Positions 63,915 to 64,000 of a DNA stretch of 64,000 nucleotides are shown in pieces (within the stretch, counting starts at the first letter, position 1; each line of letters opens with the position of its first letter). The notes beneath the pieces were generated by a model. The model was not told where the DNA came from. It searched no databases and was given only the letters and a program-made list of their open reading frames with translations. The position numbers and the translations under genes were made by a program. This DNA comes from Escherichia phage EC.P1: the sequence record PQ657772.1; one strand, written 5' to 3'.

Positions 63915-64000
63915 TGCCTTTGATCAAGAATTGATCAGAATTATACGCCTTATGCTAAATTGATCCAGTACTTTTTGATCATTTATTGATCGATATTATA
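63915..64000. repeat. cluster of five TTGATC(N) / GATC sites at the window edge
   Basis: TTGATCAAGAATTGATCAG...TTGATCCAG...TTGATCATTTATTGATCGAT within about 90 bp. Confidence 0.5.

Follow-up and report, generated by a model that had tools for sequence, protein, structure and literature searches.

In the Dam+ bacterium Escherichia coli, control by Dam methylation and SeqA is known from a series of promoters and GATC clusters, including the dnaA promoter, oriC sequestration, IS10 pIN, Tn5 tnp, P1 cre, Mu mom, pap and agn43. SeqA needs pairs of hemimethylated GATC sites that lie at most about 31 bp apart. The unwinding element of oriC also uses this tetranucleotide, with 13-mers that begin with GATC, and is accompanied by DnaA boxes. 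Here, we analyzed a cluster of five GATC sites close to the end of a 64,000-nucleotide stretch of Escherichia phage EC.P1 (PQ657772.1), and this whole stretch is called the window below. The best-supported statement about the five sites is an anatomical one: they form a promoter-proximal array of repeats, carried on an optional 330 bp early-gene cassette.

Two phage systems are also close enough for comparison. The pac site of phage P1, which at the sequence level is the closest precedent, contains seven TGATCA/G hexamers (HEX4 and HEX3), at which Dam methylation controls cleavage by pacase (PMC10028697). In the pac sequence that we checked (NC_005856, 90709-90885), the hexamers are spaced by 7, 12 and 15 bp and, after a 96 bp gap, by 12 and 11 bp. 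T4-like phages carry PeSLs, which are composite promoter-terminator cassettes (PMC2839356, PMC4122927).

By its anatomy, the array in the window belongs to a known kind, the GATC-clustered promoter regions, with a role that is predicted. Like the promoters under Dam and SeqA control, it has several GATC sites over the predicted -35 hexamer, start and flanks of a sigma-70 promoter, with a spacing of no more than 31 bp and a Dam+ host. Unlike them, it lies in the terminal repeat of a jumbo phage on an optional cassette, and its sites all share a longer, polar motif, (T)GATCAA, as well as a 27 nt repeat. In addition, a partner protein such as OxyR or Lrp is not evident here.

A unique GATC cluster inside the terminal repeat

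The plus strand of the window carries TTGATC at 63920, 63931, 63960, 63975 and 63986, so that the five sites reported within about 90 bp by the initial annotation in fact fall within 72 bp (63920-63991). Their GATC cores start at 63922, 63933, 63962, 63977 and 63988, with spacings of 11, 29, 15 and 11 bp. All five have the same polarity, reading GATCAA on the minus strand, for which the chance probability is about 3e-5. The tetranucleotide is under-represented in the window as a whole, with 126 occurrences against 217 +/- 13 in dinucleotide shuffles, and elsewhere in the window no 90 bp stretch contains more than three. The array had been described as cut off by the window end. However, relatives show that the site at 63986-63991 is the last one and that the next GATC is about 465 bp away.

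The final 2 kb of the window matched 43 phage records at 87-99% identity, all of them from Asteriusvirus, the 121Q/PBECO4-like jumbo coliphages, and the nearest were Ecwhy_1, fEgEco12, JNE01 and WPEC3/5. Since no record is identical to the window, its source is a new mosaic relative. The closest mapped relative is fEgEco12 (about 354 kb), whose genome we assembled from eight fetched pieces, and 353,740 unique bp were used for counting. In this genome we found 599 GATC sites (1.69 per kb), where a Markov model predicts 1270, and the array is the only place with at least four of them in 90 bp. The genome-wide count suggested by the initial annotation thus placed the density at the array, 69 per kb, at 41 times the genome average. 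Clusters of this kind are expected 0.005 times genome-wide, or 0.023 times at the terminal repeat's own GATC density. The cluster is therefore real, statistically robust and, as described below, conserved.

The terminal repeat of fEgEco12 measures 20,993 bp, as determined with PhageTerm and restriction digests (PMC13070987). Because the homologous array lies at 11,245-11,315 of this repeat, the array is located about 11 kb inside a direct terminal repeat of about 21 kb, not at the genome end. The homologous region of vB_Ec-M-J is likewise annotated within 'Direct Terminal Repeats'. The surroundings are a run of very small early genes, all on the minus strand of the window and each with its own host-type promoter. 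In window positions 55-64 kb, the promoter scanner reported eight perfect TTGACA-16/17-TATAAT promoters, all on the minus strand.

GATC is unevenly distributed between the two parts of the fEgEco12 genome. Outside the terminal repeat, it is strongly avoided (1.54 per kb against 3.54 expected, a ratio of 0.43), while inside the repeat there is no avoidance (4.14 against 4.49 per kb expected). The sites inside the repeat concentrate in coding DNA, at 5.2 per kb, and the non-coding repeat DNA without the array has only 7 in 6.6 kb, or 1.06 per kb. In the window, the GATC density steps near 54-56 kb, which coincides with the inferred repeat boundary. Only one other same-strand TTGATC pair 7-35 bp apart was found genome-wide in fEgEco12, at 82083-82099 (TTGATCAAAAATTGATCC), with a spacing of 11 bp; it lies just past a terminator hairpin upstream of g210, and relative to transcription it is oriented the opposite way from the array. 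Neither the cluster, the GATC avoidance nor the AGTACT motif described below is mentioned in the papers on Asteriusvirus and Rak2-like phages PMC13070987, PMC7247149 and PMC5259590.

Anatomy and conservation of the promoter region

For the layout of the region, the sequence beyond position 64000 was taken from relatives (Ecwhy_1, vB_Ec-M-J, 121Q and others). In transcription order, on the minus strand, the region opens with the stop codon of a 65-codon upstream gene, followed just beyond the window end by the strong host-type (sigma-70) promoter P1, TTGACA-17-CATAAT, with a scanner score of 11/12. About 50 nt of conserved leader containing CCCATAGGGTGC come after it, also beyond the window end. 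Then follow repeat unit I, an A-run, AGTACT, the predicted promoter P2, repeat unit II, AAAGG and the TTG start of a 48-codon open reading frame (ORF). The array is thus flanked by the -10-like TATAAT of unit I on one side and the ORF start on the other, and it overlaps the -35 hexamer and the start of P2.

The predicted P2 is a host-type (sigma-70) promoter, TGGATC-16-TATAAT, relative to whose start the five GATC sites are placed at about -61, -50, -35, +1 and +10. Site 1 (63986..63991; TTGATC on the plus strand, cGATCAA on the minus strand, GATC at 63988-63991) is at about -61 and invariant in 12 relatives, including the PBECO4 group. Site 2 (63975..63980; TTGATC on the plus strand, TGATCAA on the minus strand, GATC at 63977-63980) is at about -50 and forms with site 1 the arms GATCA-N5-TGATC. 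Site 3 (63960..63967, minus strand) has its invariant GATC (63962-63965) inside the predicted -35 hexamer TGGATC (63967-63962), 16 nt upstream of the -10 hexamer; in the PBECO4 group this hexamer reads TTGATC. The predicted -10, TATAAT (63940..63945, minus strand), is invariant in all 12 sequences. Sites 4 and 5 (63921..63937, GATC at 63933 and 63922) make up a perfect 7+7 inverted repeat, TGATCAA-TTC-TTGATCA, which spans the predicted start (GATC at 63933-63936) to about +15 and adjoins the AAAGG before the ORF.

Four of the sites are carried by a direct repeat on the minus strand. Unit I (63974..64000) reads TATAAT-ATC-GATCAA-TAAAT-GATCAAA, and unit II (63919..63945) reads TATAAT-TCT-GATCAA-TTCTT-GATCAAA and comprises the P2 -10 with the initial transcribed region. 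The two units are 27 nt long and 78% identical, with a spacing of 56 bp as measured in fEgEco12. Between them, the AGTACT motif at 63967-63972 (within 63967..63976) abuts a T/A run at 63972-63976, which has 5 A on the minus strand. This A-run has 4 A in CMSTMSU, 5 in the window, 6 in most relatives and 7 in WPEC5. Its length shifts the distance of the upstream sites to the P2 -35, and the variation could be slippage, sequencing error or tuning.

The placement of P2 draws on the sequence and on paralogous cassettes elsewhere in the terminal repeat, which carry TTGCAA-16-TATAAT where P2 sits. The predicted P2 is not an ad hoc call, since the second promoter of these sister cassettes aligns with it base for base, AAAAAAGTACTGGATC-16-TATAAT here with AAAAAAGTACTTGCAA-16-TATAAT there. 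In one particular cassette copy, the GATC array takes up the spacer, the -35 hexamer and the first transcribed stretch.

We compared 12 homologous sequences, which fall into two alleles (121Q-type and PBECO4-type) about 20% diverged. Promoter P1 and the leader are 96% identical between the alleles and the spacer 76%, followed by 46% from the P2 -10 to the ORF start, 59% in the first two-thirds of the ORF and 95% at its end. Within the spacer, the GATC cores of sites 1-3 are invariant, with differences at 0 of 12 positions against 15 of 38 other positions (39%; Fisher p = 0.01). The PBECO4-type allele gains a fourth GATC in the spacer, and its palindrome, TGATCAA-TAC-TTGATCA, lies over the P2 -35. 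The same 17 bp element is therefore present at another promoter position, over +1 in the window allele and over -35 in the PBECO4 type.

The segment as a whole is not found in every relative. ph0011 and phAPEC6 are without the entire 330 bp, from promoter P1 through the end of the 48-codon ORF, with a clean junction, and judged by BLAST coverage, UE-S1 and several others also do not have it. A direct repeat of 10-11 bp, (G/A)TTAAAATAAT, flanks the indel and includes the stop/start junction. This clean presence or absence resembles the cassette-mediated gene shuffling of T4-like phages, and the PeSL cassettes share with the array cassette a clean indel between close relatives (here of 330 bp, with the flanking TTAAAATAAT repeat). 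Unlike a PeSL, the array cassette has no stem-loop at promoter P1, and its indel is bounded by the (G/A)TTAAAATAAT repeat, not by two PeSLs. Blastn searches with the segment found nothing among 5,426 E. coli genomes and in PLSDB, and a host or plasmid origin was rejected on this basis. A scan of IMG/VR for TATAAT-N3-GATCAA-N5-GATCAA returned 121Q itself and five unrelated coding-region matches, which is chance level, and the leader 23-mer matched 121Q alone.

Two small genes follow the array. The 48-codon ORF (63758..63904, minus strand; 121Q gp293, PBECO4 gp253, phrog_38664) is the first gene served by the predicted P2. It starts with TTG, or with GTG in the PBECO4 allele, is preceded by a weak and distant AAAGG, and ends in a stop codon that overlaps the next start (TAATG). 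Its frame is open in 12/12 sequences with conservative substitutions, in alleles that are 59% identical in DNA, so that it is probably a real gene. No Pfam match was found, and its PHROG family is of unknown function. The AlphaFold model is a single helix of low confidence with a hydrophobic C-terminus. The C-terminal half of the product is hydrophobic, and it may be a small membrane protein. With no Pfam match and such a model, a DNA-binding autoregulator was not obvious in it. The second gene of the unit (63501..63758, minus strand) encodes a DksA/TraR-type C4 zinc finger (PF01258, E = 4e-9).

The adenine methyltransferase pointed out by the initial annotation is indeed encoded, far from the array, by an N6-adenine methyltransferase gene at 13104..13658 on the minus strand (PF05869 'Dam', E = 3e-32). 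The enzyme is small, and in fEgEco12 it is annotated as a type I restriction-modification subunit. A C5-cytosine methyltransferase is also encoded in relatives (fEgEco12).

Candidate methylation-sensitive control and rival explanations

The reading that we favor, and hold tentatively, is a DNA-level operator read through its GATC cores, either via Dam methylation and SeqA or via a methylation-sensitive TGATCA-binding protein. A methylation-sensitive regulatory site, one half of what the initial annotation had proposed, is plausible as a prediction and agrees with the anatomy: the GATC sites lie across and on both sides of a predicted sigma-70 promoter, three have stayed constant while their flanks changed, and the distances between neighboring GATC sites (11-29 bp) are within what SeqA requires. 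An operator at +1 or at -35, the two positions of the palindrome, can block RNA polymerase. For this reading we infer an active P2, methylation of the sites and binding by some protein. In this scheme, host Dam, and possibly the phage adenine methyltransferase too, would methylate the five sites. Replication would leave them hemimethylated, upon which SeqA could occupy the array and shut off P2. Alternatively, the effector might be a methylation-sensitive TGATCA binder in the manner of PacA of phage P1. The outcome would be that expression of an early host-takeover unit is tied to the replication or methylation state of the incoming DNA.

A bolder version of methylation-sensitive control, which we consider distinctly unlikely, is a replication-coupled epigenetic switch, in which P2 on incoming DNA would drive the DksA-like modulator of host RNA polymerase until the five sites, hemimethylated by the first replication round, allow SeqA or a PacA-like binder of TGATCAA to silence it. 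In this version, the array would be a Dam-clocked element of the early-to-middle transition on an optional, exchangeable cassette.

Several observations weigh against control through methylation. The window allele of P2 scores 9/12, which is below the scanner threshold, and a block at P2 only would be read through from promoter P1 upstream. The phage enzyme need not target GATC, because PF05869 members include non-specific adenine methylases. Neither Dam nor SeqA needs the shared AA flank (GATCAA in 5/5 sites), which can be explained by local duplication, as in the 27 nt repeat. With only two diverged alleles, the conservation statistic reflects few independent events. Moreover, the PBECO4-type allele is without sites 4 and 5, site 5 is lost in Turkey5 by mutation to GTTC, and the phasing differs between relatives, with an A-run of 4 to 7 nt between sites 2 and 3. 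The 330 bp cassette is optional, and because it is missing from ph0011 and phAPEC6, its role, whatever it is, is dispensable.

A neutral origin is a possibility that we take seriously while still doubting it. In this case, the array would be a by-product, without any function of its own, of small local duplications, in which an 11 bp unit was doubled and the 27 nt TATAAT-N3-GATCAA-N5-GATCAAA was copied 56 bp downstream, in DNA that is free of counter-selection against GATC. The 27 nt direct repeat (78% identical), the undepleted GATC of the terminal repeat, the lineage-specific sites 4 and 5 with the loss of site 5 in Turkey5, the variable A-run and the relatives without the cassette are all consistent with it. 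However, the cores of sites 1-3 are invariant where 39% of the other spacer positions differ, and an additional GATCAA, together with that same 17 bp palindrome at the other promoter position, is independently present in the diverged allele. The non-coding DNA of the terminal repeat is otherwise poor in GATC, which also argues against a neutral origin.

The extended motif can be accounted for in another way, to which we give a rather low probability: a dimeric phage-early or host protein might bind the TGATCAA half-sites (TGATCAA-N3-TTGATCA, TTGATCAA) and repress or activate P2 independently of methylation, with GATC as merely a part of its recognition sequence. The motif does exceed GATC, since GATCAA is found at 5/5 window sites and at 8/9 over both alleles, with a 5' T at 7/9, and both alleles have a perfect 7+7 inverted repeat, the one over +1 and the other over -35. 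However, no candidate binder was found; the low-confidence hydrophobic helix modeled for the 48-codon ORF is not a DNA-binding fold, and the neighboring DksA-type product would be expected to bind RNA polymerase, not DNA, as DksA-type proteins do. By eye, none of the known E. coli operator consensus sequences that we considered (FNR, IHF, Fur) was recognised beyond a partial half-site resemblance; the FNR half-sites TTGAT/ATCAA are present but wrongly arranged. The shared flanks may, again, reflect duplication.

An element acting at the RNA level is improbable. Since GATC is self-complementary, neighboring sites would pair into hairpins in the transcript, GAUCA-AUAAA-UGAUC and, at the 5' end of the P2 mRNA, the 7 bp stem UGAUCAA-UUC-UUGAUCA, and these might affect mRNA stability or translation of the TTG-initiated ORF. 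Both are found in the minimum-free-energy and centroid folds, and the second abuts the AAAGG before the ORF; in the Klebsiella phages RaK2 and Muenster, moreover, a terminator hairpin with the stem GGGGATC...GATCCCC comes after the homologous promoter and leader. On the other side, the fold is just slightly more stable than those of shuffled sequences (z = -1.8), neither hairpin is trailed by a U-run, and the 7 bp palindrome of the PBECO4 allele lies upstream of the P2 start and hence outside the P2 mRNA.

The initial annotation had also offered a replication-related role, in connection with a DnaA-box-like 'TATCCACC' near 63840, and to an origin we attach very little credence. Such an origin could be oriC-like, with a DnaA box and a GATC-rich unwinding element, or resemble oriF/oriG of T4, with a promoter R-loop and an AT-rich, GATC-bearing unwinding element. 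The strong promoter P1 does lie about 50 nt upstream of a GATC-carrying stretch of 75-78% A+T, the array is unique in the genome, and the replisome is T4-like, as annotated in fEgEco12 (gp43, gp45, gp32, gp41/61 and UvsX-type genes). The 9-mer itself is present as ATATCCACC at 63848-63856, but it has two mismatches to TTATCCACA, and 267 such matches occur in the window (4.2 per kb). Its position is within the 48-codon ORF, and its sequence differs from relative to relative (GGTGGATAT, GATGGATAT, GGGGAATAT and GATGAATAT). No perfect DnaA box (TTATCCACA) was found in the window, and one-mismatch boxes number 22 against 27.9 expected, none of them past position 63000. The cumulative GC skew of fEgEco12 tracks gene orientation, without a switch near the array. 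A distinctive unwinding element is doubtful, since the terminal repeat has 47 other places at least as AT-rich as the array, which reaches 78% A+T in 50 bp. The array resembles oriC in having GATC within A+T-rich DNA; it differs in its opposite polarity, with GATC followed by an A-rich (not T-rich) run on the same strand, as well as in the lack of a credible DnaA box and of a skew switch and in being dispensable. No iterons were found at the array. With a chance-level DnaA match, no skew switch, ordinary AT-richness, no iterons and a segment that viable relatives are missing, the array is unlikely to be a replication origin, and the oriC or DnaA-box part of the proposal falls. A T4-style R-loop origin in the terminal repeat, formed by the module of promoter P1, leader and GATC sites, is a more remote variant.

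We regard an antisense promoter as very improbable. It would use the plus-strand TTGATC at 63975-63980 as its -35, with 18 nt to TATAGT at 63999-64004, and produce RNA antisense to promoter P1 and the upstream gene. The scanner does report this site at 9/12, but such a score with an 18 nt spacer is within chance (4 sites against 2.4 expected in shuffles), the -35 is unconserved (AGATCA in the PBECO4 allele), and the nearby annotated genes are all on the opposite strand.

Finally, a packaging site like the pac of phage P1, with hexamers bound and cut by pacase in a Dam-dependent way, is largely refuted and hardly credible: like that pac, the array has GATC as the core of a longer motif, here a candidate for protein recognition, four of the five sites fit its TGATCA/G hexamer (TGATCA three times, TGATCG once; the fifth is TGATCC) and the 11-15 bp spacings resemble its 7-15 bp, but tblastn against fEgEco12 and the window gave no PacA or PacB homologues (best E = 0.3), the terminase is T4-like, and the physical ends of fEgEco12 (PhageTerm and restriction digests; PMC13070987) are at distances of about 11.2 kb and 9.7 kb from the array, which is an intergenic, single 72 bp array missing from relatives, in contrast to two hexamer domains 96 bp apart around IHF and cut sites inside a terminase gene.

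Sister cassettes and what the locus may mean

The terminal repeat of fEgEco12 contains nine cassette copies on both strands, at 1110, 3197, 3265, 4796, 9553, 11211, 13546, 16820 and 19567. Their layout is a promoter, about 26 nt, the conserved CCCAYMGGGTGC, nnAAnTGTAnC, an AT-rich spacer with AGTACT and a second promoter. In the window, sister copies on the minus strand were found near 62098, 59091 and 56331; in these a stem-loop embeds the promoter -35 (AAAGGGATTGACTCCGGTCAGTCCCTTT), in contrast to the array-bearing copy, which is without a hairpin at promoter P1. Like PeSLs, the terminal-repeat cassettes are repeated early-promoter units between tiny ORFs of unknown function; unlike PeSLs, they have in addition the conserved CCCAYMGGGTGC leader and a second promoter.

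For the leader, RNAalifold predicted a weak hairpin with zero compensatory pairs, covariation was unconvincing, and single-sequence folds suggest a closing stem around a CCC-AYM-GGG hairpin, but its columns are not shared. A search of the whole terminal repeat against Rfam at E <= 1 returned only two sub-threshold chance matches, both elsewhere. In RaK2 and Muenster, the intrinsic terminator after the homologous promoter and leader (GGGGATC...GATCCCC-TTTG) would yield a small RNA of about 90-100 nt.

Other features of the fEgEco12 terminal repeat were observed alongside. In its interior, a separate promoter and a spacer of about 85 bp go with almost every tiny gene; just beyond the repeat boundary (20993-25000), the genes form long operon-like series with 4 bp overlaps. 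The first part of the repeat (1-1688) has no annotated gene and many AGTACT sites, and at least one cassette copy there, on the minus strand with its motif at 1110, faces the genome end; two further copies are at 3265 and 4796. AGTACT occurs 138 times in the terminal repeat against 6.8 expected (about 20-fold), and elsewhere in fEgEco12 it is about 8-fold over-represented, at 2.5 per kb. It stands in or beside almost every early promoter, often as CAGTACTG, at varying positions relative to the hexamers; besides the copy at 63967-63972, examples in the window are at 63039-63044, 63484, 63551 and 63786. AGTACT may be a binding or modification site.

For now, the array stands as a modest, well-delimited candidate rather than a discovery. 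If its origin is neutral, the locus still documents the gain and loss of early-gene cassettes in the terminal repeats of Asteriusvirus. One dense, conserved cluster in a genome that avoids GATC is an exception of the type that usually marks function. If the array does sense methylation, a very large lytic phage would be timing a host-takeover factor through the Dam and SeqA of its host, and the region would also represent a compact, portable methylation-sensitive promoter.

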